Assembly (NCBI GenBank): GCA_965222605.1
Contig: OZ244960.1
Coordinates: forward strand, 4,544,001-4,608,000
DNA: 64,000 nt
Source of the DNA: Candidatus Latescibacterota bacterium
Lineage (GTDB): Bacteria; Latescibacterota; UBA2968
Reading direction: 5' to 3'
The notes below the pieces were generated by a model. That model saw only the letters and a program-made list of their open reading frames with translations. It ran no database searches and was not told the origin of the DNA. Below, piece after piece: positions 41,418-64,000 of this stretch; positions within the stretch are counted from its first letter, which is position 1, and every line of letters begins with the position of its first letter. The position numbers were made by a program, and so were the translations under genes.

Positions 41418-42629
41418 ATGTATATGCACACTAAATATGGTTCGTGCAGAACAAAATGTCATTCAAGCCAATTAGGCGTTTGTCCCCCTCTGCACAATGT
41501 CATTAAAACCATCGCCATCTTCGTAACCGCAGCCCTCTTGCTCAACGCGATGGCTCCCACACTCGCGCACGCAGCTACATATCTGCAAGGCACAGAGGTC
41601 AATGCCAATACGCTGATTCGAGATGCGTATGTGCAAGTCACTTATCGCGATAACAGAGGTCAGGAAAAAACGGAGAAGGGGTGGATTGACGCGATTGGCG
41701 AAACCTCGTTCACCATTCGAAGTGGAGGTCTCAAGAGCGAGAAAGCCATTGCCTACGCCAACGTCGTGTCCGTGATCATGAGCGATGAATCAACTGTGCC
41801 AGCGAAGCAGATGAATGAGGTGAATCGATTTATTAGAGAAAACATTAGCGTGCAAGAGGCAGGTCAGATTCGCGCTCAAGTGCTCAAAGGCAGTGGCATA
41901 GATGGCGGTAAAGTTAAGATCGGTACTTTTGTTGAGGTGATTTATGGAAAAGGAGATTGGGATTCCATATCGGGAACGTGGGAGACACGCGCAGTTGCAA
42001 GAGGCTATATCAAGGGCATTGATGCCGAAACCTTGATCGTTGGTGAACGGTTTAGGAAGAAGGAAATCGCATTAGACCGCGTTCAAAAACTGAAACCTAT
42101 CAAAAACCTAAGACAATCACCACTTGAGATCGGCGCAGAAATTCTATCTGTGCGATATGCGATCGATTATTCCGATGATTCCGAGGCACTCGGTGCCTTA
42201 GCCGGGGATACTGGCACACTCATTGGTATGGGAGGAGGCTTGTACGGGAGACTATTGCCGTTAATCTATGTATCTGGCTTTTCTTTTTCAAGATTGGCTT
42301 TTGACCTGGGTGGGGGGCTTACCTCTGCCTACTGGGATGGCGGGAATTTTACCTCTTGGGGAGCACAGGGTGGGGTCGCTTATTTTTTGAGCAAGAAAAC
42401 ATCGAACGCTGTTTATATCAGGTCTTTCGCGACAATATTGACCCGTTCCACAGTTGGTGCGGGAATAGGTATTGGGTATCGCCGCGTTTTCCAGAACAAG
42501 ATGGCGATCAGGATTGAGCCATCATATATGCGATGGTTTTTTAATGGACAAAGACGGAGTAATCTCATGCTCCATCTGAAATATGGCGTCATTTTGGGTG
42601 GAAAGTCTCCGTCCTCAAACTCGAAATGA
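41418..42629 (+). CDS. Modular exported protein: module A + module B + small beta-barrel-like C-terminus
   Basis: AALLLNAMAPTLAHAATYLQG shared with 43653 and 58973; FVEVIYGKG...GYIKGIDAETLIVGERF shared with 60153 and 62390. Confidence 0.8.
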   Translation: MYMHTKYGSCRTKCHSSQLGVCPPLHNVIKTIAIFVTAALLLNAMAPTLAHAATYLQGTEVNANTLIRDAYVQVTYRDNRGQEKTEKGWIDAIGETSFTIRSGGLKSEKAIAYANVVSVIMSDESTVPAKQMNEVNRFIRENISVQEAGQIRAQVLKGSGIDGGKVKIGTFVEVIYGKGDWDSISGTWETRAVARGYIKGIDAETLIVGERFRKKEIALDRVQKLKPIKNLRQSPLEIGAEILSVRYAIDYSDDSEALGALAGDTGTLIGMGGGLYGRLLPLIYVSGFSFSRLAFDLGGGLTSAYWDGGNFTSWGAQGGVAYFLSKKTSNAVYIRSFATILTRSTVGAGIGIGYRRVFQNKMAIRIEPSYMRWFFNGQRRSNLMLHLKYGVILGGKSPSSNSK

Positions 42630-42707
42630 TCTCGCAGGTCTGAGGGATTTTGTATTAATAGGGGTCTATGTCCTGAGTTTGTGACAAAGACCAATCACGA
42701 AAGGTAA

Positions 42708-43619
42708 ATGATTATGAGACAATATATTCTGATCGGGCTAAGCACATTGTGTACCTGGCTCATAGCAGGTGAAGGATTTGCCCAGAGGCATGCTCGCACC
42801 ACTGCTTTGGGTGAGGTTGGTGTGGGATTGATTGGGAGTGGGCAGGCCATTCTGTACAATCCAGCAGGACTGGCTTTTATGGAACGCAGAGAAGCCTATT
42901 TTACCTACATAGACTGGCCATCGGACACGGAGGAACACAACGTGGGGATTTCTGCAAATGTGCTTGGGCAAAGGGCATTTGGCCTTTATGCCGAGCGCGA
43001 TAACTATAGCGAGGATTATGCCATTTTCGGAGGCTATGGACAAAAAATAACGGACAGAATTGCGGTGGGAACGACGTTTAAGCTGATTCATAACAACTAT
43101 CAGATTTATTCTCCAGAACTTAGACAGTTTATTTCACAAACACAAAATAAGGTTGCCTTTGATTTGGGTACGTATGTTATCGGGTTCCGGAATATGGTGA
43201 TGTCAGTAGGTCTGGAAAATGTGAGTTCAGATAGCCTGCTTCAAAAGGATGCGCGGCTGGGGTTGCTCATCGATATGTTCGCCTTGATAAATGCCGGGCC
43301 TTTGCCACACCAACTGGACGTTATGTTAGACATGGAGATACCGATCAATTTTGACAGGGACACAATACTGAGTGCAGCTATCGAATATGGGTACACGCAC
43401 TACGGTGCAAATGGTTCTGTTGGATTCTCGTTGCGTTTAGGTGGATTCTCGCGGGACTTTGGAGATCAAGATTATATCTTTAGGGGGTCGGCTAAATGGG
43501 GAGGTGGGTTGCATTTCCTGACCCAAAAGGGCATGGGTGTAAAGATAGATTACACGCCCTATTTTTTCCCAAGCCAATACGAAAATGGACATATCATCAG
43601 TATTGCTTTTATGTTCTAA
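42708..43619 (+). CDS. PorV/PorQ-like (UPF0164) outer-membrane barrel
   Basis: Signal peptide; ARTTALGEVGVGL...AILYNPAGLAF; AFDLG; terminal Phe. Confidence 0.75.
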   Translation: MIMRQYILIGLSTLCTWLIAGEGFAQRHARTTALGEVGVGLIGSGQAILYNPAGLAFMERREAYFTYIDWPSDTEEHNVGISANVLGQRAFGLYAERDNYSEDYAIFGGYGQKITDRIAVGTTFKLIHNNYQIYSPELRQFISQTQNKVAFDLGTYVIGFRNMVMSVGLENVSSDSLLQKDARLGLLIDMFALINAGPLPHQLDVMLDMEIPINFDRDTILSAAIEYGYTHYGANGSVGFSLRLGGFSRDFGDQDYIFRGSAKWGGGLHFLTQKGMGVKIDYTPYFFPSQYENGHIISIAFMF

Positions 43620-43652
43620 AGTCAAATTCTCTGTCGCTTTAAGGAGACATTC

Positions 43653-45157
43653 ATGAAAAAATTAACCTCTGTCTGTATAACTGCAGCTCTCCAGCTCAAC
43701 GCGATGGCTCCGACGCTTGCACACGCAGCTATATATCTGCAAGGTGCAGAGATCAATGCCAATACACTGACGCAAGATGCTTATGTTGCAGTCACATATT
43801 ACGATAGCAATGGAGAACAGAAATTGGTAAAGGGATGGATTGATGAGGTTGGTGAAACCACGTTCACCATTCGTAGTGGAGCACTTTTTGGAAAGAAGAC
43901 CATTGCTTATGAAAATGTCCTGTCGGTGATTATGAGCGACGAATCAACTGAGTCAGCGAAGCAGATGAATGAGGTAAATCGGTTTATTCGGAATGTGAAA
44001 GCAAGAGAAATAGAGCGGGCTAAAAAAGAATCAAAGGCAGAAGATCACGTTATACAATGGCTCGATCCGATCAACACGAAGGCTCCCGCTAATAATGGCG
44101 GTGCTAATACGAATGGCAATGTTGCTTATGAGGTGATTGCTGGCGTTAAAAAGTATGTGGGGGAGGATGCGTGGCGAGTGATTGTCGCTAAAGTCGCTAT
44201 GTCGAAGTGACGTACCGCGGGGCGAATGGCAAGACCGAGACAGCGGAGGGGTATGTGCGAGCGATAGATGAAACCGAGTTGACGATTTATCAGGGCGGTT
44301 TACGCAAACGCATCGCACGAGAAAGGATTGAGGTGCTGATGGTCTGTGATCATTCACGCCAACTTCAGGAGATCAAGCGTCTCTTTGCCAGGCAGCAGCA
44401 ATTGTCTGAGTCAAAACCATCCGTTCTTCCCTCAGCGGTGATTGGCGAGGTTGATCAGTACGTTGGGGAAAATGCGCGAAAGGTAGTCGTTGCTAAAGGT
44501 CGCTATGTGGGTTTGACCTACCTCAGAGATGATGGCAAGATTGAGAAAGCAGAGGGGTTTGTCCGCGCGATGAATGAGACTGAACTAACGATTCAACACA
44601 CTTCTCGCGTTGGGAGGAGGATAATTTCTCGGGAGAAGATCACTGTCTTGATGGTCTGCGATTATCCAAGCCAACTTCAGCGTGCCCCCTTTTTTAAAAA
44701 AAAGCCTCCTGGCGTTGGTACCAGGTTGTTAGGTGGTTTGGTAGGTGGACCTATAGGAGTAGTTATGTCGATATCTGCAATGATGCCATTTCTTCCAGAA
44801 GATTATTGTCTTATTGAGATATCGGATGAGGATATGAAGTGCGGAGACTATGAACACTTGGATACTGTCGTATGGTCAGGCATTCTTGTCAGCTATATAA
44901 GTGGCACTATTATCGGCCTGAATCCATACGATTCACTCGGATCTACACTGGTGGGTAGCCTTGTTGGCGGCGGCGTAGGCATCGCCATGACATCTGCCTC
45001 AGAGACGCTCTGGTCTTCCCTGTTTGTCTGCCCAATCGCTGGGGCTTACATTGCATCTAAAATATTACGCAAATCGTCTGAGCCACGCCGGTTCTCAGTC
45101 GGTCTCGCACCTGACCGCGATGGAAATCTGTCCGCGGTTGCCACGTTGCGGTTTTAA
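43653..45157 (+). pseudogene. Modular exported protein (A + D + D + Gly-rich segment + ATLRF tail) split by a 1-bp deletion
   Basis: AAAGTCGCTATG at ~44190 versus AAAGGTCGCTATG in paralogous modules (~44495, ~53464). Restoring one G fuses ORFs 43653-44210 and 44207-45157. Confidence 0.8.
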
Positions 45158-45201
45158 GTGGTTCAGCAAAATCTCGACTCAAATACAGATGAGGTGATTT
45201 C

Positions 45202-48200
45202 ATGAGAATATACTGCAAGACACTCAGGTTGAGCGCGTGCTTGTTTGCTTTGCTCTGTCTATCGTCTGCTGGATATGCTTCGCCACCATCGACTGATGTG
45301 CATTTCTGTCTGCCGCTCGACCTGAGAGAGCCAGATAGTCTGTATGTTGCCACGAAGCACGCGCTTAATCTGAACGTTGGCGAACCACGCACGGTGCGGA
45401 TGATCTACTTTTTGCCGAATAACCGTCCATTTCGCCAGGAGGTAGTGGATTCGATGAAAGTGACAATTCGCCAGGTTCAGACCTTCTTTGCCGAGCAGAT
45501 GCAGGCGCATGGGTATGAAAAAAACCCCTTCCGCTTTGAGACCGGTGCCCAGGGCGAACCACTGGTGCATCGCATGGAGGGTCAACACCCCAATAGCCAC
45601 TATTTTGATGAGACATTTAAGACTGTGTTCGAAGAGATTGAACAAGCGTTTGATGTGAGAGAGAACATTTACTTCATCGTCATTGATAACGGTACAAATT
45701 CAATTGGTAGTATTGGTCAGAGTGCGAGAGGTGCCGGAAGTCGTATGGGAAAAAATGGTGGCATTGCTTTGTTTCCCGGCGAATTTATCTGGCATGTGGT
45801 AGCACATGAGCTTGGCCATGCTTTTGGATTGCAGCACGATTTCCGCGACAATGCGTACATCATGTCGTATGGTGCAGGACGAAATCGGTTATCTATGTGC
45901 CACGCCGAATTTTTGGCTGTGCATCCGTATTTCAATCCCGATGCCTCAATTGAAGAGGCGCAGTTGCCAAATATAGAACTCATTTCATCACGGGTATATT
46001 CCGCAGGCTCAAAGAGCGTTTCTGTTCAACTTAAAGTCAGCGATTTAGAAGGACTCCATCAAGTACTCTTATTCGTTAGAACGGGAAAACCACACATTGC
46101 CGCTGGATTTCGTGAAGTGAAGACATGTCGTGGCTTGGTAGGTGAAAAAGATACCGTCATTGAATTTGAGTATGACGGCGTCATTCCATCTGTTACGGGA
46201 CCGAGTCTTTCCAATCCTACCATTCATCCAATTTATATCGAAGCAGTTGATACTGATGGAAATGTGGGTAGCGTGTATTTTGAACTGTGGGAAACCCCGC
46301 CAAACTATATCACCACCCTTGAGGGACATACGAGAGCGGTCCGTTCTGTGGTGTTTTCGCCTGACGGTACAATCCTTGCTTCAGGGTCACAGGATAGCAC
46401 AATCAAGCTGTGGGACGTTGAGACAAAAACAAATATTGCTACTCTTTCGGGGCATAACAATGAGGTTAACACTGTATCATTTTCGCCAGATGGTACAATC
46501 CTCGCTTCAGGCTCACAAGATAGAACGATCAGACTATGGGATGTTGCGACGCGAACAGAAATAGCCACCATTGAAGATAGGGATAGGGGCACAATTATTT
46601 CTGTGTCGTTTTCACCCAATGGGACAATGCTCGCTTCTGGGGCTTCTGGTGGAACGGTCAAGCTATGGGATGTTGCGACAGGTACAAGTATCGCCACGCT
46701 TGAGGGACATGAGGATTGGGTTAGTGCTGTGTCGTTTTCACCTGACGGGACAATGCTCGCTTCAGGCTCAGGGGATAGAACAATCAGACTATGGGATGTT
46801 GCGACGCGCACAGAGATAGCCACCATTGAAGGTAAGGATAGAATTCTTTCTGTGTCGTTTTCACCCGATGGGACAATGCTCGCTTCAGGAGCTTTCGATT
46901 ATACGGTTAAATTATGGGACGTTTCGACAAAAGAGAATATTACTACCCTTGAGGGACATACGTTTTTTGTCAATTCTGTTGTATTCTACTCTGATGGGAC
47001 AATACTTGCTTCTGGATCAGAAGATAAAACGGTCAAGCTGTGGGATGTTGCGACGGGCACAAATATCACCACCTTTTCAGGGTATGAGGGTGGTGTCGAA
47101 TCTGTGGCATTTTCGCCAGATGGTACAATCCTCGCTTCCAGTTCATGGGATCATACGGTCAGATTATGGGATATTTCTGAGTGGCAGCTTCCCCGTCCTG
47201 CAATGCTTGTGAAGATTTCAGGCGATAACCAGCGGGGCACGCCGGATTCAGAGTTGGCGAATCCTCTAATTGTTGAGGTGAGAGATCAGTATGGTGCTGT
47301 GTTTGAAGGTGCTACGGTCACGTTTACTGTCACGGAAGGAGACGGTAAGCTCAGTGGGCGGTTCACGGTTGAGAAGGCAATAACCGATGCCAATGGTAGG
47401 GCACAGAGTACGCTGATGCTTGGAGACAATCCGGAGACAAATACTGTTGAAGTATCAGTCGCTGGGGCTAAGGAGATCTTTAATGCCATGGGTGTTGGAA
47501 CATCTACCACATCAATCCCTGACGGTAGTTATCAAACGGGGAGTTTGCCCGACGGTGCGATGTTTCGTCTGGGAAAAGGACGCATTCGGGGAACCGACAG
47601 GGCTGTGGCATATTCGCCGGATGGTCGAAGTCTGGCTGTGGCGAGTAGCATTGGTATCTATCTTTACGATGTGGCGACATATCGTGAACGCGCGCTATTC
47701 ATCGGGCATACGGATTGGATTGATTGTGTGGTGTTTTCACCCGATGGGACAATGTTGGCTTCTGGGGCTGCTGATAGAACGGTTAAACTGTGGGATGTTG
47801 CAACAGGAACAAATATCTCTACCTTTGAAGGACATACAGAGTGGCTGGAATCTGTGTCATTTTCACCCGATGGGACAATGCTGGCTTCTGGGGCTCGGGA
47901 TAATACGATCAAGCTATGGGATGTTGAGACCAGAGAAAATATCGCCACTCTTGAAGGACATACGGATAAGGTCTATTCTGTATCATTTTCGCCCGATGGG
48001 ACAATGCTGGCTTCTGGGTCAGAAGATGACACGATCAAGCTATGGGATGTTGAGACCAGAGAAAATATCGCCACGTTTGAGACGCATACATATAGAGTCT
48101 GGTCTGTGGCGTTTTCGCCCGATGGCACAATACTGGCTGCAGGATCATGGGATGAGGTCAAGCTGTGGGATGTTGCAACCGGGACAAATATCGCTACGTT

Positions 48201-50046
48201 TGAAACACACCGAGCCGAGTCTGTGGCGTTTTCCCCTGACGGTCGAAGCCTGGCTGCGGCAAGTAGCATTGGTATCTATCTTTACGATGTGGTGACTTTT
48301 CGCGAACTTGCGCTATTTACTGGGGATACCTATTGGGTTCAGTCTGTTGCGTTCTCCCCTGATGGCTCAACACTCGCTTCCACCTTACAGAATAACACGG
48401 TCAAGCTGTGGGATGTTGCAACACACAATCACACGATACTAAAGCATACATATCAGGTCGTGTCTGTGGCATTTTCACCTGATGGCACGACGCTCATCTG
48501 GGGAACAAGAGACTACAGAGTCTCGCTGTGGGATGTTGTCAACGAAGAAAATATCACTATGCTCAAAGGAGATGTAGGTTTTGACTCGATCTCACCCGAC
48601 GGAACGACCCTTGCTTTGGGAACTGGGCACGAGATCTGGCTATGGGACCTCGCCACTGGAGAAAATATCGCCATGTTTAAGGGACATAGGTCTCCGGTCA
48701 TTTATGTATCGTTTTCACCTGATGGGACGACCCTCGCTTCCGGGTCATGGAATGGCCCAGTCAAGTTGTGGGATGTCGCGACAGGGGAAAATATCGCTAC
48801 TTTTGAGGGACATACGGCTGGGGTCAATTCTGTTGCATTTTCTCCTGATGGGAAGACCCTTGCTTCTGGGGCTTGGGATGGCTTGGTCAAGTTGTGGGAT
48901 GTCGCGACAGGGGAAAATATCGCTACTTTTGAGGGACATACGGCTGGGGTCAATTCTGTTGCGTATTCGCCCGATGGAACGACCCTCGCCTCGGGGGCAA
49001 CGAATGGCTCGGTTCTGCTGTGGGATGTTGCGACAGAAGAAAATATCGCCACTCTTGAGGCGCGTGATTTAGTCCAGTCTGTTGTGTATTCTCCCGATGG
49101 TGCAATCCTCGCTTCTGGGTCAGCGGATGGCACGATTCTGCTGTGGGATATATCAACCGGACAGTCTGTCGTTACCTTTACAGGGCATACGGAGTCGATC
49201 GGATCTATAGCATTTTCGCCTGAAGGTACAAAGCTTGCGTCAGGCTCTGCTGATGGCACGGCTCTGCTGTGGGATGTGTCGGAGTATGTCACGCCTGTGG
49301 TTTATATGCCCGATGCCAACCTGCGTGCGGTGATCCGGGATGCGCTGGGCAAGTCGCGTTTTGCACCCATTACTACCATTGATATGGCGAGTTTGACTAC
49401 TCTGGATGCGAGCAATCACAATATTCGCGAGTTGGTAGGGCTTGGGTCTGCAACCAATCTGACAGAGTTGAATCTTACGGATAATCCGTTGAGTTCACAA
49501 TCCCTCAATACGCATATTCCAGCTCTTCAGGACAGAGGTGTTGAGGTTCTGTTTGACAGACCTACGACGCTGGTAAAAATCTCAGAGAGTGAACAGGAAG
49601 GCGTGCCCGGTGCAGTGTTGGAGACGCCTCTGGTTGTTGAAGTGCGAGATCTGGATGGGAATGTGCTCGCAGGTGCGCCAGTCGCGTTTGTAGTTACAGC
49701 GGGGGATGGGGCGCTTAGTGTAGAGACCACAGTGACGGATTCGAGCGGTCGAGCATCGAGTGTGTTGACGCTTGGTAACAGTTTGGAGCCAATCGTTGTT
49801 TCGGTCATGGTTATAGGGATTGAGCAGCCGGTGACGTTTTTGATAGAGTCTATGGCTACGCCCGATTTTGATGGGGATGGAACTGTTGATTTTGCCGATT
49901 TTTTGCTTTTTGTAGAGCAGTTCGGGTTCAGTGAGGACGACGCGGGTTATGAAACGCGGTTTGATCTGGATGGGGATGGCATGATTAGATTTGAGGATTT
50001 TCTGATTTTTGCCAATGCCTTTGGCAAAGTCGTATCATCCAATTGA
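45202..50046 (+). CDS. Large secreted metzincin-WD40-Ig-LRR protein with C-terminal dockerin-like EF-hand pair
   Basis: Signal peptide; HELGHAFGLQH plus Met-turn YIMSYG; multiple WD40 blocks; two Big-1-like domains (PLIVEVRD, PLVVEVRD); short LRR; DFDGDGTVDFADF tail. Confidence 0.9.
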   Translation: MRIYCKTLRLSACLFALLCLSSAGYASPPSTDVHFCLPLDLREPDSLYVATKHALNLNVGEPRTVRMIYFLPNNRPFRQEVVDSMKVTIRQVQTFFAEQMQAHGYEKNPFRFETGAQGEPLVHRMEGQHPNSHYFDETFKTVFEEIEQAFDVRENIYFIVIDNGTNSIGSIGQSARGAGSRMGKNGGIALFPGEFIWHVVAHELGHAFGLQHDFRDNAYIMSYGAGRNRLSMCHAEFLAVHPYFNPDASIEEAQLPNIELISSRVYSAGSKSVSVQLKVSDLEGLHQVLLFVRTGKPHIAAGFREVKTCRGLVGEKDTVIEFEYDGVIPSVTGPSLSNPTIHPIYIEAVDTDGNVGSVYFELWETPPNYITTLEGHTRAVRSVVFSPDGTILASGSQDSTIKLWDVETKTNIATLSGHNNEVNTVSFSPDGTILASGSQDRTIRLWDVATRTEIATIEDRDRGTIISVSFSPNGTMLASGASGGTVKLWDVATGTSIATLEGHEDWVSAVSFSPDGTMLASGSGDRTIRLWDVATRTEIATIEGKDRILSVSFSPDGTMLASGAFDYTVKLWDVSTKENITTLEGHTFFVNSVVFYSDGTILASGSEDKTVKLWDVATGTNITTFSGYEGGVESVAFSPDGTILASSSWDHTVRLWDISEWQLPRPAMLVKISGDNQRGTPDSELANPLIVEVRDQYGAVFEGATVTFTVTEGDGKLSGRFTVEKAITDANGRAQSTLMLGDNPETNTVEVSVAGAKEIFNAMGVGTSTTSIPDGSYQTGSLPDGAMFRLGKGRIRGTDRAVAYSPDGRSLAVASSIGIYLYDVATYRERALFIGHTDWIDCVVFSPDGTMLASGAADRTVKLWDVATGTNISTFEGHTEWLESVSFSPDGTMLASGARDNTIKLWDVETRENIATLEGHTDKVYSVSFSPDGTMLASGSEDDTIKLWDVETRENIATFETHTYRVWSVAFSPDGTILAAGSWDEVKLWDVATGTNIATFETHRAESVAFSPDGRSLAAASSIGIYLYDVVTFRELALFTGDTYWVQSVAFSPDGSTLASTLQNNTVKLWDVATHNHTILKHTYQVVSVAFSPDGTTLIWGTRDYRVSLWDVVNEENITMLKGDVGFDSISPDGTTLALGTGHEIWLWDLATGENIAMFKGHRSPVIYVSFSPDGTTLASGSWNGPVKLWDVATGENIATFEGHTAGVNSVAFSPDGKTLASGAWDGLVKLWDVATGENIATFEGHTAGVNSVAYSPDGTTLASGATNGSVLLWDVATEENIATLEARDLVQSVVYSPDGAILASGSADGTILLWDISTGQSVVTFTGHTESIGSIAFSPEGTKLASGSADGTALLWDVSEYVTPVVYMPDANLRAVIRDALGKSRFAPITTIDMASLTTLDASNHNIRELVGLGSATNLTELNLTDNPLSSQSLNTHIPALQDRGVEVLFDRPTTLVKISESEQEGVPGAVLETPLVVEVRDLDGNVLAGAPVAFVVTAGDGALSVETTVTDSSGRASSVLTLGNSLEPIVVSVMVIGIEQPVTFLIESMATPDFDGDGTVDFADFLLFVEQFGFSEDDAGYETRFDLDGDGMIRFEDFLIFANAFGKVVSSN

Positions 50047-50067
50047 TTGTACAGATGAGGTGATTTC

Positions 50068-53000
50068 ATGAAGATATTTTGCATAATGCTCAGGATGAGC
50101 GTGTACTTGTTTGCATTGCTCTGTTTTGTATCTGTTGGATATACTGATCAGCCATCCGCAAACCGTATCGCTTCCTTTGAAGGGCATACGGATAAGGTCT
50201 ATTCTGTGTCGTTTTCGCCCGATGGAAAAATGCTCGCTTCCGGGTCAAGAGATAACACCATTAGATTATGGGATATTGCGATGAAGACAAATATCGCCAT
50301 CCTTGAAGGGCACACGAGCTATGTTTATTCTGTATCGTTTTCGCCCGATGGAAAAATGCTCGCTTCCGGGTCACGATCAAGGAATAATTCGATCAAACTA
50401 TGGGATGTTGAGACAAGGCAACATATCGCTGACCTTGATGGACATGATTGGGGGGTCCGTTCAGTATCGTTTTCGCCCGATGGGACGATGCTTGCTTCCG
50501 GGTCAGGGGATAACACGGTTAAGCTGTGGGATGTTGTGTCAAGAGAAAATAACGCTACCTTTGAGGGACATACACATAATGTAAATTCTGTGTCGTTTTC
50601 ACCTGACGGCACAACGCTCGCTTCGGGGTCTTCTGATAATACGGTCAAGCTATGGGATGTTGCGACGAAGACGAATATCACGACTCTTGAAGGACATACA
50701 TATACTGTAAATTCTGTGTCGTTTTCGCCTGATGGTAAAATGCTTGCTTCCGGGTCAGGAGATGACACACTCAAGCTGTGGGATGTTGCTACTGGACGAC
50801 TTATCGCCACCTTTGAAGGACATATTAGTGATGTTGCTTCTGTGTCATTTTCGCCTGATGGAAAGATTCTCGCCTCGGGAGCAGCGAAGGGCACACTCAA
50901 GCTGTGGGATGTTGCTACTGGACGACATATCGCTGACCTTCCGCGCAGTGGTTGGATTCGTTCAGTATCGTTTTCGCCCGATGGTACGATGCTCGTTTTC
51001 AGTTCAGGGGATGGGGATGGCCTGGTCGAACTGTGGGGTACATCTACATGGGTGCAGCTTGAAACACCTACCATATCAATTACTGACGGTAGTTATCAAA
51101 CGTGGGGTTTGCCCAAAGGGGCTAAAGCGCGTCTGGGTAAAGGCGTAATAACCGGTATGACATATTCACCCGATGGCTCTCAACTCGTAGTGGCGAGTGG
51201 CATGGATATAGGTATTTGGATCTATAATGCCCATACTGGTGCCGAAATTGTCCTGCTCAAGGGGCGTTCGATTAGCCCTTTTTCCACGAGATTTTCTTCT
51301 CCGGTGTTTTCCCCGGATGGTAGCACGCTCGCCAGTGGGGGTTTTAGAGGGATTTGGTTGTGGGATGCTGCCACTGGACAACAGAAAGCAATATTTGAAG
51401 GACATAGGAGTTCTGTAGTTTCCGTGGCGTTTTCCCCGGATTGTGGCACGCTTGCCAGTGGGGGTAATGACAGGACGATTCGGTTGTGGGATGTTGCCAC
51501 TGGAGAACATAAGGCGACGCTTGAAGGACATAGGAGTTCTGTGGCTTCTGTGGCGTTTTCCCCGGATGGCGGTACGCTTGCCAGTGGGAGTAGAGACGGG
51601 ACAGTTCGGTTGTGGGATGCTGCCACCGGAGAACATAAGGCGACGCTTACAGATCATACATCACGGGTTTATGCTATTGCATTTTCCCCGGATGGTGGCA
51701 CGCTTGCCAGTGGGAGTAGAGACGGGACAGTTCGATTGTGGGATGCTGCCACCGGGCAACTCAAGCAGACACTTGAGACGCATGAGATTTATGTCTATTC
51801 CCTGGCGTTTTCCCCGGATGGCGACATATTTGTTTGTGGGACTGAAACCGGAGTTGTCCTATTGTGGGATGCCGTTACCTGGCAACGCGAGAAGCTATTT
51901 GATGAGCGTACAACGAGGTTTAGTTCCGTGGCGTTCATAGCGTTTTCCCCGGATGGTAGCACGCTTGCCAGTGGGAGTGATGACGGAGCTGTTCGGTTTT
52001 GGGATGCTGCCACTGGACAACTCAAGCAGACACTTGAGCATTGGAGTTCTGTCAGATCCGTGGCATTTTCTCCGGATGGAGGCACGCTTGCCAGTGGGGA
52101 TAGGGGCAGTACGATTCGAGTATGGGATATTGTTACCGGTCAACTCATAGAGACACTTGGCGACGTGCCTGTAGGCGGAGATGAGATACCTTTTCGTTCC
52201 GTGGCATTTTCCCCAGATGGTAGCACATTAGCCAGTGGGAGCAATGATGGGACAGTACATTTGTGGGATGCCGTTACGTGGCAAAGCAGGGCGACTCATA
52301 GATGGCCTAGATCGGCGATTAGATCGGTGGCGTTTTCCCCGGATGGTAGCACGCTTGCCAGTGGAAGTGGAAGGGGCGCAATTCGGTTTCTGAATGCTAT
52401 CACTGGCCGCGATACGGCGAACCCTATATGGTTTCCATCAGGGGTTAATTCTGTAGCATTTTCCCCGGACGACAGCACGCTTGCCAGTGGGCATGAAGAC
52501 GGGACAATACAATTGTGGGACGTTGTCACTCGCCGACAAAAAAAGACTCTTACAGGACATGAGGACGATGTCGATTCTGTGGTATTTTCCCTCGATGGTG
52601 GCATGCTTGCCAGTGGTAGTGATGACAGAACGATTCGGTTATGGGATGTTGTTACTGGCCAACTCAAAAGGACTCTTAGACATGGTACTTCTGTTAGTAC
52701 CGTAGCGTTTTCACCGGATGGTAGTACTCTTGCCAGTGGAGGTCCTAATTCAGTGGAGATTCGGTTGTGGGATGTTGTCACTGGTCAACCCATAACAACT
52801 CTTGAGGGACATAGCGGTGTTATCAGTTCTGTGATGTTTTCACCGGATGGTAGCACCCTTGCCAGTGGAAGTTGGGACCACACAGTTCTGCTGTGGGATA
52901 TGTCTCCATACATCAAGCCTCAACCACCTACTCCTGATTTTGATGGCGATGGTGCTGTTGGTTTTGCCGATTTTTTGCTATTTGTGTCACAATTCGGATT

Positions 53001-56098: not shown

Positions 56099-56348
56099 CG
56101 CTTCAGGGCCTCCCAATAAGTTTACAAATCACATCTATCTGTATAATACCGAAAATAGTAATCACGAGTAAATATATCCAAACCCAGTTGCAAAGTAAAC
56201 AACCCATACTTTTGCCCGGATAATAACATTTGACAATATCTCGCGGCATCCTTGCCGCGATCAAGGTCGGGAAGCGGGGTATGAAGGCGAGTAAATCGAG
56301 CATGACTGCGCCAGCAGTTCAAAGGATTCCCTCCTGCGTGATATTTAC

Positions 56349-56557
56349 AAATTTTCAATCTGTTTAACGAGTCCGGAGATACACATTGTGTCTCCGGATT
56401 TTTTTGTGCCTGCTGTGCAATACTCAGTTTGCAGGTGCAATATTTAGTTTGCACTGATTGGGCGATTTTTGGGGTGGATAACAGGGAAAATGGCCTTTTT
56501 TCAGGGTAAAATGGTTTTGGCACGGGATTTGCATATGACGTGTTGTGACCGAGTAGT
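56349..56557 (+). promoter_or_regulatory. Duplicated terminator + enhancer + sigma54 promoter block (copy 2)
   Basis: TGCAA-N8-TTGCA at 56416-56433 and 56436-56453; TGGCAC-N5-TTGC at 56518-56532; homologous to 36487-36693. Confidence 0.88.
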
Positions 56558-56574
56558 TTGAGATGTGAACCTTT

Positions 56575-57237: not shown

Positions 57238-57261
57238 GATAGCATTTTTCAGGAGAATGAC

Positions 57262-58272: not shown

Positions 58273-58325
58273 TGCATCAAGCATGACAGACGTTCGTCAA
58301 CGAATATTCAAAAAAGGAAAAAGTA

Positions 58326-58853
58326 ATGACACGCTCGATTTCTTGCCTGATCTGTCTCTTTTTGATTGTAACCTTCAGTTTCCCGGCAGAGGGAAAAAAA
58401 ACAGATCTCACCAAAAGTTATGGTATTGGACTTCAGGGAGCTACACCCACATTTGGTGGCATTAGTTTTCGCTATAACGGACTGGCACCCGTATATCTTC
58501 AAACCGTTGGGCGTTTTATTATCAATGGTCAGGATAGTGACCATATGTTAGGTGCTGGTGTTTCATATGCCATATTTGAGCATCAAGGCAGGTGGAACAT
58601 AGCCCGACTTTATTTCACTTTAGAAGGCGGCTGGCAATACAAAAAAGAGGAGGATCTCCATCAAGAGATTATTAAAACCACGACGCTGGGAACTGGACTC
58701 GCTTTTGGAGGCGATATTGTGTTTTCACTTGGGGGGATTCCTCTTGGCTTGAACGTGGAAATCGGTCAAGGGTTTGGTAGGAAAAAAACCAGCTCTCAAT
58801 CTAAGGGCCTTGCTGGCGTCTATGTAGGCGGGGGAATACATGCCTATTTTTAG
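58326..58853 (+). CDS. Small outer-membrane beta-barrel-like hypothetical protein
   Basis: Signal peptide; alternating Gly/aromatic strands; ends GGGIHAYF. Confidence 0.65.
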   Translation: MTRSISCLICLFLIVTFSFPAEGKKTDLTKSYGIGLQGATPTFGGISFRYNGLAPVYLQTVGRFIINGQDSDHMLGAGVSYAIFEHQGRWNIARLYFTLEGGWQYKKEEDLHQEIIKTTTLGTGLAFGGDIVFSLGGIPLGLNVEIGQGFGRKKTSSQSKGLAGVYVGGGIHAYF

Positions 58854-58883
58854 ATCTCCTTTTTTAGATATAGCAACCATCCA

Positions 58884-58972: not shown

Positions 58973-60100
58973 ATGAAAAAATTAATAGCTGCCTTTGTAA
59001 CCGCGGCCCTCCTGCTCAACGCGATGGCTTCCACACTTGCACACGCAGCCACATACTTGCAAGATGCAGAGGTCAATGCCAATACGCTGATTCGAGATGC
59101 TTATGTGCAAGTCACCTATTACGATAGCAATGGAGAACAGAAATTGGCGAAGGGGTGGATTGACACTATTGGTGAGACCACATTTAAGATTCGAGGCAGG
59201 GCACTTTTCGGAAAGAAGACCATTGCTTACGACATAGTCCTGTCAGTGATCATGAGCGAAGAATCAACAACACGAGGAAAGCAAATCAATGAGGTAGATC
59301 GGTTTATTCGAGACATGAAAAAACGAGAGGCAAGAGCGTTAGAAACAGAGCAAGCCGCTATACAACGGCTCAATCAGGAAGCTGTGACGATCATATCTCG
59401 CGGACAGATTGATTCTTCAAAGATTACGAAGGGATGGTATGCCCATGTCGTCTATACATCGCAAGGTGCCACAGGAACTGCAACCAGCCGAATTGCGGAC
59501 AAGGACTCAAGCCGTATTGCGCTCAAATATGGGTTTGATACCTATAATATAAACTATGATGACATCGATACCCTCGTGGTTGACAAACAGTGGCGCGATA
59601 TCGAAAGGTATCGAGAAATCGGCGCGAAGTACGATGCCAGAGTACGTTTCAAAGCGCCTTCAGTTTCAAGAAGGCGGATAACGGGCAGACTCATCAATGT
59701 GACGCAAGACACTCTTATTATCGAAGCTGGACGTACACTGTATCAGGTACCCGTTTCTTCAATCTCCAATCTTGAAGTCAGCACCTTAAGATATAACAAA
59801 GGCTTTAAAATCGGGCTTGGTGCCGGAGCCGTCATCATTGGATTCACAAGTATATATACATATAGAGAAAAAAAGCGTATTGACCAGAGCAGTGGCGATA
59901 CCAGTCTCGCATATTACACCCTTGGTATCGCAACATTAGTGGGATATTCCGCTGGTGCATTTGTATGTCTTCTCTCCACTCTCATTGGTGCTACAATAAA
60001 ATCCGACAAATGGGTCGAAGTGCCACCACAACGTCTCAACCTGAGCCTTGCGCCCACATCCACAAAAGGGCTTCGCGCTGCGCTTACGTTTAATTTTTGA
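58973..60100 (+). CDS. Modular exported protein: A + C + Sm-like domain + hydrophobic segment + ALTFNF tail
   Basis: RBS AAGGAG then MKKLIAAFVTAALLLNAMASTLAHAATYLQ; module C (GWYAHVVYTS...DIDTLVV) shared with 60153. Confidence 0.8.
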   Translation: MKKLIAAFVTAALLLNAMASTLAHAATYLQDAEVNANTLIRDAYVQVTYYDSNGEQKLAKGWIDTIGETTFKIRGRALFGKKTIAYDIVLSVIMSEESTTRGKQINEVDRFIRDMKKREARALETEQAAIQRLNQEAVTIISRGQIDSSKITKGWYAHVVYTSQGATGTATSRIADKDSSRIALKYGFDTYNINYDDIDTLVVDKQWRDIERYREIGAKYDARVRFKAPSVSRRRITGRLINVTQDTLIIEAGRTLYQVPVSSISNLEVSTLRYNKGFKIGLGAGAVIIGFTSIYTYREKKRIDQSSGDTSLAYYTLGIATLVGYSAGAFVCLLSTLIGATIKSDKWVEVPPQRLNLSLAPTSTKGLRAALTFNF

Positions 60101-60152
60101 CGTCAGGGACCGAGCTAACGGCTGTGTTCACGTATTTTAACAGGAGGAATTT

Positions 60153-61337
60153 ATGGTACGAATAGCAGCAATCGTTTGTATGTTAAGCGTATGTATGCCA
60201 GAGACCTCCCTGGCAAGGGAGACCTTTGAAGCTGGTGAGATTGATAGCAGCACAGTTAAACCAGGTGCTTTTGTCGAGATTATCTATGGGAAGGGCGAGC
60301 GGGATACGGTGTCAGGAGAGTGGGAGGGACTGAATACGGCAAGGGGATATATTCAAGCTATTGATGCGGAGCGGTTGATCATTGGCGAACAGTTTTGGAA
60401 GAAGGAGATCGCATTAGATCGCGTTCAAAAGCTGACGATTTTAGGAGTTGTCCGCGATGTGAAAAAGTCAGCGTTAGAGACAGCGCAAACCGCTATACAA
60501 CGTTTCGATCAGAAGGCCATTGCGATTATGGCACGGGGGGAGATTGACACGTCAAAGATCGCGACGGGATGGTATGCTCAGGTCGTTTATACATCAGACG
60601 GGGATAGAGGAACTGCAATGGGAAAGATTATCGGCAAGAACTCAGATCGTATTGTGATCCAGAGTAGGGATAGTTTTTGGAGAAACTGGAAAATAGCATA
60701 CAGTGATATTGATACACTCGTTGTAGCGAAACGGCAAAGAGACATTGAAGGGCGAAGAGATTCAAGAACAAAGAGCAGGCGCGGTGCAGGATTGAATATT
60801 GAAATTGGCTGGAATGGTGGCGTCAATCCCTATGATATTTACTGGATATCTAACCCCGGAGGAGGTGCGTATGCCGCGGGCTTCGACACACAAACGAGAC
60901 AGCCGTGGTCAGTTTCCTGTTATTTTGGTCGTTTTCTTACGGGTGAGAGGCGTGGGCGATTGGGGATAAAATATATCCGGCAGATAGTAGAAGCAGATAA
61001 AAGGGGTCGTTATCCCGGACGCTATCGCCTCTGGATGTCATCGCTGCTGTTGAATTATCAATTTGTGGTTCTAAGAAGCACGGCAGGTATCGTAGTGGCT
61101 GAGATTGCGATGGGTAGATCGCTCACGAATGACGACTTCAGGTACTGCGATGGGGTCTGTTTTCCCGCATCCAGTACGCACATCTCTTCCGGGCTTGCGT
61201 TCATACTGCCTATCCATCGGAGTATTGGCGTGCAGGCTGTGGTGCGAGCAAATTTATACAAGCCAAAGCCGAACGAATCCATCACGCCTTTTAAGTCGGG
61301 AATATCGTTGGCTATTGGACCGCTTTTAGAGTTTTAG
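60153..61337 (+). CDS. Modular outer-membrane protein: B + C + beta-barrel-like domain (GPLLEF tail)
   Basis: EAGEIDSSTVKPGAFVEIIYGK module; module C; tail SGISLAIGPLLEF shared with 62390. Confidence 0.8.
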   Translation: MVRIAAIVCMLSVCMPETSLARETFEAGEIDSSTVKPGAFVEIIYGKGERDTVSGEWEGLNTARGYIQAIDAERLIIGEQFWKKEIALDRVQKLTILGVVRDVKKSALETAQTAIQRFDQKAIAIMARGEIDTSKIATGWYAQVVYTSDGDRGTAMGKIIGKNSDRIVIQSRDSFWRNWKIAYSDIDTLVVAKRQRDIEGRRDSRTKSRRGAGLNIEIGWNGGVNPYDIYWISNPGGGAYAAGFDTQTRQPWSVSCYFGRFLTGERRGRLGIKYIRQIVEADKRGRYPGRYRLWMSSLLLNYQFVVLRSTAGIVVAEIAMGRSLTNDDFRYCDGVCFPASSTHISSGLAFILPIHRSIGVQAVVRANLYKPKPNESITPFKSGISLAIGPLLEF

Positions 61338-61388
61338 GAATTGTCCCAGGATGAAATATCACGAGTTCAATTGGAAAAGGTAATGACC

Positions 61389-62357
61389 ATGAGACGATAT
61401 ACGCTACTTGGGCTATGCACTCTGATTGGGTTGATGGCAGGTGAGGGATCAGCCCAGGAGCCTGTCAGTATAAAGAGAACGGGGTTCACTTTTTTGCAGT
61501 TTCCTACCAATGCCCGCACGGCAGCTTTGGGTGAGGCTGGCGTGGGGTTGATCGAGAGTGGGCAGGCTATTTTGTACAATCCAGCGGGACTGGCTTTTAT
61601 GGAAGATCGGGAAGCGTATTTTACGTATATCGATTGGATTTTTAGTACCAAGAATTACGTGGCTGGCGTTTCAGCAAATGTGCTGCGTGTAGGGACATTT
61701 GGACTTTCTGTCTTGAATCACGATGTCGGTCCTATCAGGTTCGAGAATACCACGCAAGAGATCAGCGAGTATGCCATTTCCGTGGCTTATGGGGGCATGA
61801 TTATCAATCGGATTGCGGTGGGAACCACCCTCAAGCTGATTCATCAAGGCTTTCCTGAGTTCACGCAAAATGTCTTTGCCTTTGATTTGGGTACGTATTT
61901 TGCCACGGGATTTCGGAATACGGTGATTGCGATGGGCGTGGAGAACTTGAGCACGAGCGGGTTAGGCGAGCCAGAGCGATGGGGACTTCCGAAGAATGTG
62001 CGGCTGGGTGTGCTCCTTGATTTGATTGCGCTGATAGATTTCGGTCCCCTGCCCCACGCTCTGGACCTGGTCGTAGATGTGAATAATCCAAATGATTCTG
62101 AGGATGGCTTCTACACGGATATAGGTGTCGAATATACATATATGTATCATACCGCCATAGGCGACAAGTTGGGATTTTCGCTGCGAGGAGGGAAAAGAAA
62201 AAGGCCCCGTAGTCTAATAGATCCCTATACCCTGGGTATTGGGGTGCAGTTTAAGACCGGTGGTTTAGGTTTGAAGGTGGATTACGCGAGCAAGTCCTTT
62301 GACGCCTTTTACGATGGTGAACGGGTGCATATTCTCAGCGTTGCGTTTGATTTTTAG
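61389..62357 (+). CDS. PorV/PorQ-like (UPF0164) outer-membrane barrel
   Basis: TGFTFLQFPTNARTAALGEAGVGL...YNPAGLAF; FAFDLG; ends SVAFDF. Confidence 0.8.
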   Translation: MRRYTLLGLCTLIGLMAGEGSAQEPVSIKRTGFTFLQFPTNARTAALGEAGVGLIESGQAILYNPAGLAFMEDREAYFTYIDWIFSTKNYVAGVSANVLRVGTFGLSVLNHDVGPIRFENTTQEISEYAISVAYGGMIINRIAVGTTLKLIHQGFPEFTQNVFAFDLGTYFATGFRNTVIAMGVENLSTSGLGEPERWGLPKNVRLGVLLDLIALIDFGPLPHALDLVVDVNNPNDSEDGFYTDIGVEYTYMYHTAIGDKLGFSLRGGKRKRPRSLIDPYTLGIGVQFKTGGLGLKVDYASKSFDAFYDGERVHILSVAFDF

Positions 62358-62389
62358 AACAAGGATTAATGATTCGAAAAGGGGAACTC

Positions 62390-63619
62390 ATGGCACGAAT
62401 AGCTACAATCGTTTTGATGCTGGGCATGTGTCTGCCTGAGACCTTGCTGGCAGGGGTGGTCTTTGAAGCCGGTGAGATTGATAGCAGCACAGTTAAACCC
62501 GGTGCCTATGTCGAGATCATCTATGGGAAAAGAGAGCGGGATCCAGTATCAGGAGAGTGGGAGAAATTGGATACTGTAAAAGGATATATCAAAGCCATTG
62601 ATGCGGAGACTTTGACTATTGGTGAACGGTTTTGGAAAAAGAAAATAGAGTTAGAGCGCATCCAAAAGCTGACGATTCCAGATGCTGATGGCGAGATGGA
62701 CAGGCTCAGGGGGATTGACTTGCCTTTCGGATCACGGACATTGCAGACGAAGATCATTTTAGAAGCGGGTGAGATTGATAGCAGCAGGGTTGCAGTCGGT
62801 GCTTATGTCGAGGTCATCTATGGGAAGGGGAAGCGGGATGCGGTGTCAGGTGAGTGGGAAGGAGAAAAGAAAGTAAAAGGATATGTCAAAGCTGTTGATG
62901 CAGAATATTTGATTATTGGCGAACGGTTTTTGGAAGAGCAGATCGCATTGGAGCGCGTTCAAAAGCTGATCATTTTAGACGCTGCTGACCGGGAGATGGA
63001 CAAGCTCAGACAGCCAACAGATTCGCTTTCAGTGAGAACAAAGAACGGGCATGGGATAAGGCTGTTATTTGAAACTGGCTATTTTACGGGCGTTAGAACA
63101 GAATTTCTGGATCTCTACTTCGGTGGATCGATAGGTAAAAAAGGACTGCCCTGGTCTGTGTCTCTTTTATTTGCTGATGCGAGACGTTGGAGACTTGCTC
63201 TGAGAGGTGCCTATCGGAAAATTCAGGTATTCGGAAGATATACCCAGGCCGAACTCGCGGAGCGATTTCCCCTTGCTCCCAGGAGCGAATCCATTCGGCA
63301 TAGAGATGGCGTCACCTACCGGTTGGTTTCGGTGTTGCTGGCCTACCAACGTGTTATTCATAGAAGCACGCGAAGTGTCGTGCTGGCGGATCTTGCAGGC
63401 GGAATAGCGTATAGGAGTTCTTTTTTTAATAATGGGGGGGAGCCGGTGGAATCTTCCAGAAATTTTTTATGCTGGTCTGCGGGAGTTGCTTTTCTGATGC
63501 CTGTCCATTCGCGCGTCAGTCTGCAAGCCAGTGTGCGGAAAGATTTTTTGGTGGGGTATTTCCCAGATCCTTTTATTTCGGGGATGTCGTTGACTATTGG
63601 ACCGCTTTTAGAGTTTTAG
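62390..63619 (+). CDS. Modular outer-membrane protein: B + B + beta-barrel-like domain (GPLLEF tail)
   Basis: Two EAGEIDSS...ERxQKL modules; tail SGMSLTIGPLLEF. Confidence 0.8.
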   Translation: MARIATIVLMLGMCLPETLLAGVVFEAGEIDSSTVKPGAYVEIIYGKRERDPVSGEWEKLDTVKGYIKAIDAETLTIGERFWKKKIELERIQKLTIPDADGEMDRLRGIDLPFGSRTLQTKIILEAGEIDSSRVAVGAYVEVIYGKGKRDAVSGEWEGEKKVKGYVKAVDAEYLIIGERFLEEQIALERVQKLIILDAADREMDKLRQPTDSLSVRTKNGHGIRLLFETGYFTGVRTEFLDLYFGGSIGKKGLPWSVSLLFADARRWRLALRGAYRKIQVFGRYTQAELAERFPLAPRSESIRHRDGVTYRLVSVLLAYQRVIHRSTRSVVLADLAGGIAYRSSFFNNGGEPVESSRNFLCWSAGVAFLMPVHSRVSLQASVRKDFLVGYFPDPFISGMSLTIGPLLEF

Positions 63620-63669
63620 GGATTGTCCCAGGATAAATACTACCATTTCAATCAGGGGAATATTCGATT

Positions 63670-64000
63670 ATGAGACGATATACTCTAATTGGGCTATGCA
63701 CACTGTGTATATGGCTCATAGCGGGTGAGGGGTTTGCTCAGACGGTTATCAGGTCAACGGGGTACGACGTTTTATTTCGTCCCAACAGTGGCCGCACCGC
63801 TGCTTTGAGTGAGGCGGGTGGGGGGTTGATCGGAAGCGGGCAAGCTATTTTTTATAATTCCGCAGGACTGGCTTTTATGGAAGGTCGGGAAGCGTATTTC
63901 ACTTACGTAGATTGGATTAGTGGTTCCAAGAACTACGTAGCTGGCCTTGCAGCAAATGTGTCAGGCAAAGGGACATTCGGGATTTCTGCGGTGAATCTCG
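63670..64000 (+). CDS. PorV/PorQ-like protein, N-terminal part (runs off window end)
   Basis: MRRYTLIGLCTLCIWLIAGEGFAQ...RTAALSEAGGGLIGSGQAIFYNSAGLAFMEGREAYFTY, paralogous to 42708 and 61389. Confidence 0.8.
   Translation, partial: MRRYTLIGLCTLCIWLIAGEGFAQTVIRSTGYDVLFRPNSGRTAALSEAGGGLIGSGQAIFYNSAGLAFMEGREAYFTYVDWISGSKNYVAGLAANVSGKGTFGISAVNL

Follow-up and report, generated by a model that had tools for sequence, protein, structure and literature searches.

How does a bacterial chromosome come to hold, side by side, six genes for exported proteins that are assembled from the same few small domains in different orders, and what could such proteins do? This question is raised by a 64,000-nucleotide (nt) stretch of the genome of a Candidatus Latescibacterota bacterium of the sponge-associated type (GenBank assembly GCA_965222605.1, contig OZ244960.1, positions 4,544,001 to 4,608,000), hereafter called the window, and in particular by its part from 40.6 to 64 kb, where tightly spaced genes run in one orientation on the + strand. 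A first-pass annotation made from the DNA alone had described six genes in this part as mosaics of four modules, A to D, with exchangeable C-terminal ends. All six genes lie co-oriented on the + strand where that annotation had placed them, and BLASTP together with hidden Markov models (HMMs) reproduced their module orders, namely A-B-barrel, A-D-D-tail1, D-tail1, A-C-x-tail2, B-C-barrel and B-B-barrel. The explanation favored here as a whole, and considered probable, is that these genes belong to a Latescibacterota-specific, tandem, operon-like array of recombining envelope-anchor proteins with periplasmic modules that are candidate tethers. Three parts of it, namely the design of the family, its recombination and its hypervariable site, can be stated with high confidence. 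By this design, each protein begins with a signal peptide for Sec export, continues with one or more SH3-like modules and ends in one class of membrane anchor.

The modules are about 70 amino acids (aa) long, belong to types A, B, C, D and x, and were assigned by BLASTP (E 1e-24 to 1e-70) and by HMMs built from the modules themselves. All types fit a single alignment of about 70 columns and share its strand pattern. Mutual homology of A, B, C and D was detected by hhalign with a probability of 92-97% for five pairs and 50% for the pair A-C, and on this profile comparison A to D are one homologous domain. The segment x, which had been noted earlier as present but not counted among the four modules, proves to be a fifth module in its own right with a similar fold and a separate sequence family, because its hhalign probability against A-D is below 2% and no sequence relation to them is detectable. 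In the AlphaFold models, the modules are small barrels of 5-6 strands, with predicted local distance difference test (pLDDT) values of 75-93 for A, C and x and 60-79 for B (overall, 65 for the B-B-bar3 model and 69 for the A-C-x-tail2 model), and a long helix connects A and C. A Foldseek search with the three-module model retrieved the tandem Tudor domains of Spindlin and SETDB1 and the tandem KOW domains of Spt5 (E 4e-4, probability 0.97); the template modeling (TM) scores of 0.1-0.27 are low because the domain orientations differ. The models thus support an SH3-like (Tudor/KOW-like) small-barrel fold common to the modules, in line with the single SH3/Sm-like fold that the first-pass annotation had proposed.

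In contrast to this likeness in fold, membership of the modules in a known sequence family is not supported by the profile searches. The best Pfam match of x is the C-terminal SH3 domain of RimP (PF17384), at E 2.2e-4 and below the cut-off; the window proteins score 21.8, 15.6 and 15.3 bits against a gathering score of 26.3, so that none reaches it, and PF17384 is listed as a precomputed match in some relatives. The N-terminal domain of RimP is not present. A profile search of the PDB with the module alignment gave nothing significant, the best values being E 0.024 for an unrelated reductase, 0.12 for bL19 and 0.29 for RimP. RimP, Tudor and KOW proteins bind nucleic acid or histone in the cytoplasm or nucleus, whereas the proteins of the present family are predicted to be Sec-exported.

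The family is new, phylum-specific and not covered by curated models, while recombining modular outer-membrane families are already known as a phenomenon. In a search of 185,579 species genomes, all 25 related loci (numbered with the prefix L below) belong to Latescibacterota/Latescibacteria; a few NCBI records of member proteins are labeled as metagenome-assembled genomes (MAGs) of Gemmatimonadota or Poribacteria. With a profile of all modules, only 291 of 1.84 billion representative proteins are matched at E<=1e-3, the family proteins stay below the cut-off of every Pfam and NCBIfam model, and the source annotation of the member proteins reads "hypothetical protein" only. Literature searches for Latescibacteria combined with PorV or dockerin returned nothing relevant, and none was found on outer-membrane hypervariability in Latescibacterota. 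Across 376 family proteins, 66 architecture strings were counted, some of them from partial proteins and all within a sample biased by the three search seeds. Module order obeys a clear grammar, and free shuffling is not supported. Module A stands first in 170 of its 183 occurrences, and x precedes tail2 in 144 of 146 tail2 proteins and forms a fixed unit with it. Module B leads to one of the anchors bar1, bar3, bar4 and tail1, in no case to x or tail2, and D leads to tail1. As many as six module matches occur in one relative, and orthologues at 70-97% identity keep their architectures.

Clustering of 188 C-terminal regions (protein numbers with the prefix P below denote relatives) gave at least four anchor classes that are mutually unrelated in sequence, namely bar1, bar3, bar4 and tail1/tail2. 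The last residue is Phe in 96 of the 105 members of tail1 and tail2 and in 28 of the 41 members of bar3, the others of which are often ORF (open reading frame) fragments; the 17 bar1 members end in E, K or S and the 16 bar4 members in R or L, with no Phe in either class (0/17 and 0/16). Both bar3 proteins of the window share their final residues with Phe last, as had been described from the DNA; the extension of this ending to bar1 does not hold. The tails had been treated as two separate kinds, but tail1 and tail2 are homologous (hhalign probability 93%), and every other pair of anchors, the small outer-membrane protein (OMP) described below included, stays below 2%. What stands of the earlier description is that the tail ends are conserved at the DNA level while the sequence upstream differs: positions 45086-45157 and 54016-54087 agree in 65 of 72 bases (90%), and the tail1 parts just upstream of this 72-nt end are 43.5% identical in protein between the genes at 43653-45157 and 53224-54087.

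The best-defined anchor is bar3, which is modeled as an 8-stranded outer-membrane barrel of the OmpA/OmpX type. By AlphaFold and DSSP, its eight strands span residues 231-415 with pLDDT 70-89, and the connections of 13, 3, 25, 4, 5, 4 and 9 residues alternate between long loops and turns of 3-4 residues, as in canonical OMPs. Foldseek matches in the PDB were the OmpA transmembrane domain (9fzc, E 7e-7, TMt 0.69), NspA (1p4t, TMt 0.77), Ail and OmpX. The barrel thus resembles OmpA, OmpX, Ail and NspA in its eight strands, alternating long loops and short turns and aromatic C-terminus. Unlike these proteins, it has no match to any curated OMP barrel model in Pfam or NCBIfam and is just one of at least four interchangeable anchors; compared with OmpA, the order is also inverted, since SH3-like modules at the N-terminus make up the soluble part, in place of OmpA_C. 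The sequence pattern suggests that bar1 is a beta-barrel, and bar1 and bar4 both look like further barrel-like anchors. The tails contain Gly-rich hydrophobic helices, of which tail2 has two, while tail1 shows four hydrophobic segments by eye; after them comes a strongly conserved stretch that ends in Phe and is about 35 aa long in tail2. For 50 tail1 proteins, a profile search of the PDB gave no match below E 0.24, and Pfam gave weak transporter-like matches and Gly-zipper noise only. As Gly-zipper lipoproteins the tail1 proteins do not qualify (PF05433 at 13.6 against 24.2 bits in one protein; PF13488 in 2 of 50 at E>=0.003), no canonical lipobox was seen in them, and an ESM Atlas search with the D-tail1 protein ended in unnamed clusters without a lead (top score 0.85). 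An inner-membrane hairpin for tail2, considered on the positive-inside rule, was dropped because the charged loop varies between the helix-core variants.

Comparison of these parts among close relatives revealed their mosaic origin. The product of 62390-63619 is identical to P0006 at 100% over B1 and the linker, 91% over B2 and 62% over the barrel, and to P0002 at 87%, 81% and 96% over the same three parts. Two bar3 barrel types, alpha and beta, carry interleaved N-terminal lineages, and each of them occurs both with a single B module and with two, which makes up all four combinations. Trees of the N-terminal columns and of the barrel columns of the B-B-bar3 family conflict with each other. 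In approximately unbiased (AU) tests, for which the groups were defined after the trees had been inspected, the N-terminal columns rejected monophyly of the alpha barrels (p 4.3e-5) and the barrel columns rejected the N-terminal clade (p 5.3e-81). Among the tail2 proteins, P0268-P0276 are identical to the window protein at 90-97% in C and 83-100% in x; identity falls to 25-32% over the helix core and returns to 86-97% over the last 35 aa. P0277-P0302 mostly show the opposite pattern. At the DNA level, the comparison of the window with locus L011 jumps from near-random to about 90% identity exactly at the start of the conserved tail end and then stays at 87% through the B-C-bar3 gene and its PorV-like neighbor up to the start of the next gene; this block (59985-62381) stands at another array position in L011. 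The frameshifted A-D-D-tail1 gene shares 96.6% identity in its A part with P0322, a relative of 510 aa that is intact. Within the window, synonymous divergence (dS) is 0.55 and 0.38 at the two gene ends against 1.46 in the core for the bar3 pair, and 0.44 at the end against 1.72 in the core for the tail1 pair, with few codons in each case. Judged from sequence, these comparisons show that modules, module number and anchor cores were recombined among close relatives, and the pieces swapped are the barrel cores and the membrane-helix cores.

The first-pass annotation had read conserved modules and tails as recombination anchors that exchange variable, surface-exposed parts. The swapping is borne out by the mosaics, the AU tests, the DNA jump and the differences between arrays; the surface exposure is not, as bar3 is OmpA-like. 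Loop-restricted diversifying selection on the barrel was considered and dropped, because the differences between alpha and beta barrels run through the strands as well. Recent intragenomic gene conversion in the window was likewise dropped, because outside the 72-nt tail end no tract exceeds 90% identity, and dS nowhere falls below 0.38.

Beyond the small-OMP gene, the array forms a hypervariable stretch whose place in the chromosome is fixed. On its left side, the flank (56372-58861) remains collinear in the five loci L002, L006, L008, L009 and L011 at 87-94% DNA identity, with the genes for a CDP-alcohol phosphatidyltransferase (93-97% aa identity), an HpnL-like protein (92-93%) and the small OMP (85-87%) in the same order. 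Collinearity stops at 58858-58861, just past the stop codon of the small-OMP gene (58853), and from there on gene number, order and module composition differ in all six arrays. With PorVL denoting a PorV-like gene, the window continues with A-C-x-tail2, B-C-bar3, PorVL, B-B-bar3 and PorVL. At the same site L002 carries A-tail1, A-C-x-tail2, A-C-x-C-x-tail2, PorVL, B-B-bar4, PorVL and A-C-x-tail2; L006 A-x-tail2, B-bar3, B-tail1 and A-C-x-tail2; L008 A-x-tail2, B-bar3 and A-C-x-tail2; L009 A-C-x, B-tail1, fragments and C-x-tail2; and L011 A-B-tail1, A-B-bar4, PorVL, A-tail1, A-x-tail2, B-C-bar3, PorVL and A-C-x-tail2. Taken with the conflicting trees, gene order was thus found to differ between genomes, module histories to be incongruent and the genes to match no single described family. 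Family or PorV-like genes split into two adjacent ORFs were observed in L001 (12261-12864, 15675-16588), L009 (12024-13259), L011 (10013-11203, 11224-12226) and L012 (12905-13745); they fit birth-and-death turnover, as pseudogenes of a fast-turnover family, or may in part be assembly errors.

As for what the proteins may do, both chain ends of an 8-stranded barrel lie in the periplasm, and the modules of the barrel-class proteins are on this basis predicted to be periplasmic, a placement that is considered probable from the bar3 model. The modules would then hang from the outer membrane into the periplasm and may act as binding units that hold partners at the envelope. The barrel-class proteins would probably act together with the PorV/PorQ-like barrel encoded beside them: a PorV-like gene comes next after bar1 in 3/3 cases, after bar4 in 4/4 and after bar3 in 5/11. 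For the modules, the best candidate partners are the WD40 and leucine-rich repeat (LRR) proteins with a C-terminal dockerin-like tag that are encoded immediately upstream. Of 18 ORFs that end in such a tag, 15 have a family gene directly next; of the other three, one lies at a locus end, one precedes another WD40-dockerin gene and one has no family gene nearby. Tag type and neighbor are also correlated: type 1 tags are followed by a gene that starts with A or D (5/5 typed) and type 2 tags by a gene that starts with B (6/6 typed, plus one generic B-like), and both tag types occur in one genome at loci L004 and L012. A duplicated Ca-binding loop motif is visible in the tags, and four of eight tags pass the Pfam model Dockerin_1 (PF00404, 22.9 bits), namely that at 49828-50043 of the window (24.6 bits) and those in L007 (37.4), L013 (36.8) and L010 (30.4). 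The remaining two window tags fall below the cut-off, at 22.1 bits for the tag alone (41006-41191) of the 40685..41194 product, which also matches Pfam LRR_4 at E 3.6e-5, and at 19.4 bits for the tag at 52930-53115. No cohesin domain was matched on the 40 window proteins scanned.

That the modules dock tagged WD40 and LRR proteins at the envelope is therefore put forward as a candidate function of low confidence. More doubtful still is the specific proposal that the SH3-like modules are the receptors of the dockerin tags, as "cohesin equivalents", in a combinatorial envelope-anchored docking system. In such a system, the module type would set the tag that is held, type 1 with A or D and type 2 with B, and the place where the cargo is held would depend on the anchor class and on whether a PorV-like partner goes with it. 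The arrangement resembles cohesin-dockerin scaffolds in that exported proteins with Ca-loop dockerin tags are encoded beside membrane-anchored tandem small beta modules of several types, and in that tag type and first-module type correlate. It differs from them in the lack of a cohesin, in candidate receptors that are SH3-like barrels of about 70 aa and in a cargo of WD40 and LRR proteins instead of glycoside hydrolases. If the proposal is true, recombination in the array would re-wire which eukaryote-like proteins the symbiont presents. To our knowledge, non-cellulosomal dockerins have no known partners, and it is a standing question how symbionts of the sponge type put their numerous eukaryote-like repeat proteins to use; a co-encoded modular anchor offers a testable candidate for both questions. 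A passage in PMC12993501 records WD40 and LRR domains in sponge Latescibacterota MAGs.

Several points weigh against parts of this explanation. The periplasmic placement depends on a model of moderate confidence and a general topology rule, and hypervariability is more usual in surface-exposed proteins. The barrel status of bar1 and bar4, which have no terminal Phe, depends on their sequences, and the AlphaFold pLDDT of the tails is 27-62, which leaves both the membrane in which the tails sit and their topology at low confidence. The differences between alpha and beta barrels of bar3 extend over loops and strands alike, starting ahead of strand 1 and reaching strand 6, and the alpha and beta types may be alleles at one locus or paralogues, the closest relatives being known as proteins alone. 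The dockerin pairs are not independent, as L012 contributes 5 of the 15; most family genes have no dockerin gene upstream, and L014-L025 show none. Finally, the pairing of bar3 with a PorV-like neighbor reaches only 5 of 11, some of the misses being split ORFs.

Among the alternatives, it is unlikely that the proteins are tethers between the outer membrane and peptidoglycan, inverted analogues of OmpA whose periplasmic SH3-like modules bind the cell wall. The 8-stranded OmpA-like bar3 and the predicted periplasmic position of the SH3-like modules would suit this role, as would the fact that some SH3b domains bind peptidoglycan. However, no SH3b, OmpA_C or LysM model matches, and one would expect a structural tether to keep its number and composition in genomes with flanks about 90% identical, and not to adjoin dockerin-tagged genes.

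Distinctly unlikely is a second possibility, in which the proteins are surface-displayed adhesins or variable antigens under phage or host pressure, their modules being exported with PorV/PorQ-like help as in the attachment complexes of the type IX secretion system (T9SS). This possibility draws on the genes of the PorV/PorQ family that adjoin the barrel-class genes. Against the NCBIfam family model NF033709 (cut-off 90 bits), the 61341 product scores 113.9 bits and passes, the 42708 product scores 59.5 and the 63670 fragment 28.7; the 42708 and 61341 products are 45% identical by BLASTP. The 61341 product has 79 relatives, of which the distant ones carry Pfam PorV, PorP_SprF or FadL-like models. 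PorV and PorQ of the T9SS, the attachment barrels, are each encoded with a specific partner, PorU and PorZ, respectively, and the present genes are similar in both regards, the match to NF033709 and the specific partner. In contrast, their best scores on the T9SS equivalogs NF033710 and NF033711 are 40.9 and 55.9 bits, far under the cut-offs of 250 and 220, the family partner has a barrel of its own, and no T9SS C-terminal sorting domain was matched by Pfam or NCBIfam on any family protein. The hypervariability of the array and the mosaic barrel cores, which include the longest predicted outer loop of bar3 (14 of 25 residues differ between alpha and beta), also favor display at the surface. 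On the other hand, an 8-stranded barrel has periplasmic ends and, from the model and general knowledge, no pore for a passenger, and the tail-class majority lacks a PorV-like neighbor (0/41 for tail1 and 3/21 for tail2).

The family diversifies through homologous recombination, unequal crossing-over and segmental duplication, with junctions in the conserved segments, namely the signal peptide and first module, the linkers between modules and the last ~35 residues. In the explanation favored here, this variation would arise by ordinary recombination over evolutionary time without a dedicated switching machine. Programmed high-frequency variation, in which an expressed gene is rewritten from donors as in pilE/pilS, vlsE, msp2, a shufflon or a diversity-generating retroelement (DGR), is very improbable, even though variable cores flanked by conserved segments and many homologous copies in tandem would be expected of it as well. 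There are no silent cassettes, since each closely spaced window copy has its own signal peptide and all except the frameshifted one are full-length. The window paralogues are 66-83% identical in DNA without long identical tracts, dS is at least 0.38 throughout, and architectures are stable among the orthologues. No inverted repeats of note occur in the arrays, and among the window proteins scanned, none encoded in the array is an invertase, a reverse transcriptase or a recombinase, as the first-pass annotation had stated of recombinases and reverse transcriptases. Taken together, the absence of cassettes, repeats and recombinase, the level of identity and the stable orthologue architectures point to ordinary recombination, unequal crossing-over and segmental duplication instead of a programmed switch; there is no sign of programmed switching, and an active mechanism is not supported. 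Ordinary diverged paralogues without shuffling, or chimeras of MAG assembly, are least probable of all. In their favor, the sequences compared all derive from metagenome assemblies, repeated families are easily misassembled, and some family genes in related loci fall into two ORFs. Against them, the mosaic blocks are 38-75% different in protein, far above strain-level chimeras, the same block patterns recur in several independent clusters, many loci lie on single-contig chromosomes of 4-7 Mb and B is joined to four anchor classes unrelated by profile comparison.

Mosaic recombining outer-membrane families are known from pathogens, such as Neisseria Opa, Helicobacter Hop/Hor, the Moraxella UspA cassettes and the trimeric autotransporter adhesins. 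The array resembles them as a mosaic multigene family in which conserved ends flank the exchanged segments, and in its conserved C-terminal membrane-anchor signal. It differs in phylum and in domains, in the exchange of whole periplasm-side modules and whole anchor classes, in the lack of visible phase-variable repeats and in swapped parts whose surface exposure is not supported. Here the same recombination logic appears in an uncultured phylum, where it acts on entire modules and entire anchor classes at a sharply bounded site.

The features of the array and its surroundings are collected in the table. Several of them were absent from the first-pass annotation, namely the three PorV/PorQ-like genes (42708, 61341/61383 and 63670), the small-OMP gene (58326) and the dockerin-tagged genes.

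Table. Genes of the module array and its immediate surroundings, in window coordinates.
Feature	Coordinates	Strand	Remarks
Small LRR protein with dockerin/EF-hand-like tag (type 1) at its end	40685..41194	+	immediately 5' of the first family gene
A-B-bar1 family gene	41418..42629	+	signal peptide; A 41559-41801; B 41889-42131; bar1 anchor without terminal Phe
PorV/PorQ-like outer-membrane protein, partner gene of bar1	42708..43619	+	NF033709 E 4e-16, 59.5 bits, below the 90-bit cut-off
A-D-D-tail1 family gene, frameshifted	43653..45157	+	ORFs 43653-44210 and 44207-45157
Exported 1614-aa protein with HExxH, WD40 propellers, LRR and C-terminal dockerin tag	45202..50046	+	tag 49828-50043
Exported 1016-aa WD40 protein with C-terminal dockerin-like tag	50068..53118	+	family gene directly 3'
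D-tail1 family gene	53224..54087	+	module D 53407-53643
Schlafen/AlbA_2-type gene	54647-56116	-	interrupts the co-oriented block
Two lipid-related genes	56575-57237, 57262-58272	+	
Small OMP, 175 aa, Phe at the end	58326..58853	+	conserved first gene of the array
A-C-x-tail2 family gene	58973..60100	+	A 59033-59275; C 59396-59626; x ~59606-59788
B-C-bar3 family gene	60153..61337	+	B 60228-60464; C 60534-60770; barrel from ~60771
PorV/PorQ family protein	61383..62357	+	ORF opens at 61341; relatives begin at 61383; NF033709 E 1.1e-32
B-B-bar3 family gene	62390..63619	+	B1 62465-62701; B2 62783-63019; barrel = residues 231-415 of the 62369 ORF
Third PorV/PorQ-like gene, N-terminal 110 aa	63670..64000	+	truncated by the window end; 94.5% identical to P0406

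The A-D-D-tail1 gene has the module content first described, but it is not a single intact gene. A 1-nt frameshift near 44196-44210, recognized relative to the gene's own internal repeat at ~44493, divides it into two ORFs, which reflects either recent pseudogene formation or a mistake in the assembly; P0117 (495 aa) is an A-D-D-tail1 relative without the break. Within its tail1 coding region, a run of C5, T6 and A8 (44685-44703) is in frame here and is a possible slippage site. At the other tail1 gene of the window, D-tail1, DNA similarity continues for about 40 nt beyond the stop codon, to 54125, and the sequence at 54088-54125 resembles the intergenic sequence, ribosome-binding region included, in front of the WD40 gene at 45202. 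Since the similarity past the stop matches that junction, "tail1 gene + WD40 gene" looks like a duplicated segment, which suggests that a WD40 gene was lost or displaced downstream of the D-tail1 copy.

The dockerin-tagged genes show related traces of duplication. The small LRR-dockerin gene reproduces the C-terminal portion of the giant WD40 gene (40685-41229 against 49262-49558, 85% DNA identity over 297 nt), and the tag region in 40685-41229 is 78-89% identical to those at 49855-50081 and 52927-53153. The three dockerin-tagged genes also share repeated sequence at their 5' junctions and in their signal-peptide regions (40624-40730, 45184-45290 and 50050-50156, 76-78% identity). The giant protein itself (45202-50046) combines an N-terminal HExxHxxGxxH motif like that of zinc proteases with several WD40 propellers, an LRR stretch and the dockerin tag. 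In L012, ORFs of ~70-105 aa (6179-6496, 9662-9964 and 10922-11140) consist of an Ig-like remnant and a dockerin tag and alternate with B-bar3 and B-tail1 genes.

The Schlafen gene contains AlbA_2, HATPase_c_4 and Fic-like C domains and recurs at 92-97% DNA identity in L002 (3-554), L008 (12490-13944) and L011 (13388-13969); its differing position relative to the arrays of these related genomes points to rearrangements in their vicinity. The mobile genes closest to the array are a TnpB/IS605 OrfB-like gene (36832-37956, minus strand) just upstream of the WD40/array region and, further upstream, an IS66 transposase gene (17960-19429). Elsewhere in the window, the gene for a bacterial alpha-2-macroglobulin (22706-28192) is followed by one for a PBP1C-type penicillin-binding protein (28242-30590), which is the usual pairing. 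Three sulfatase genes and a heparinase II/III-like gene (7827-9224, 9770-11263, 31613-33001 and 15942-17861) fit a lifestyle of sulfated-polysaccharide degradation.

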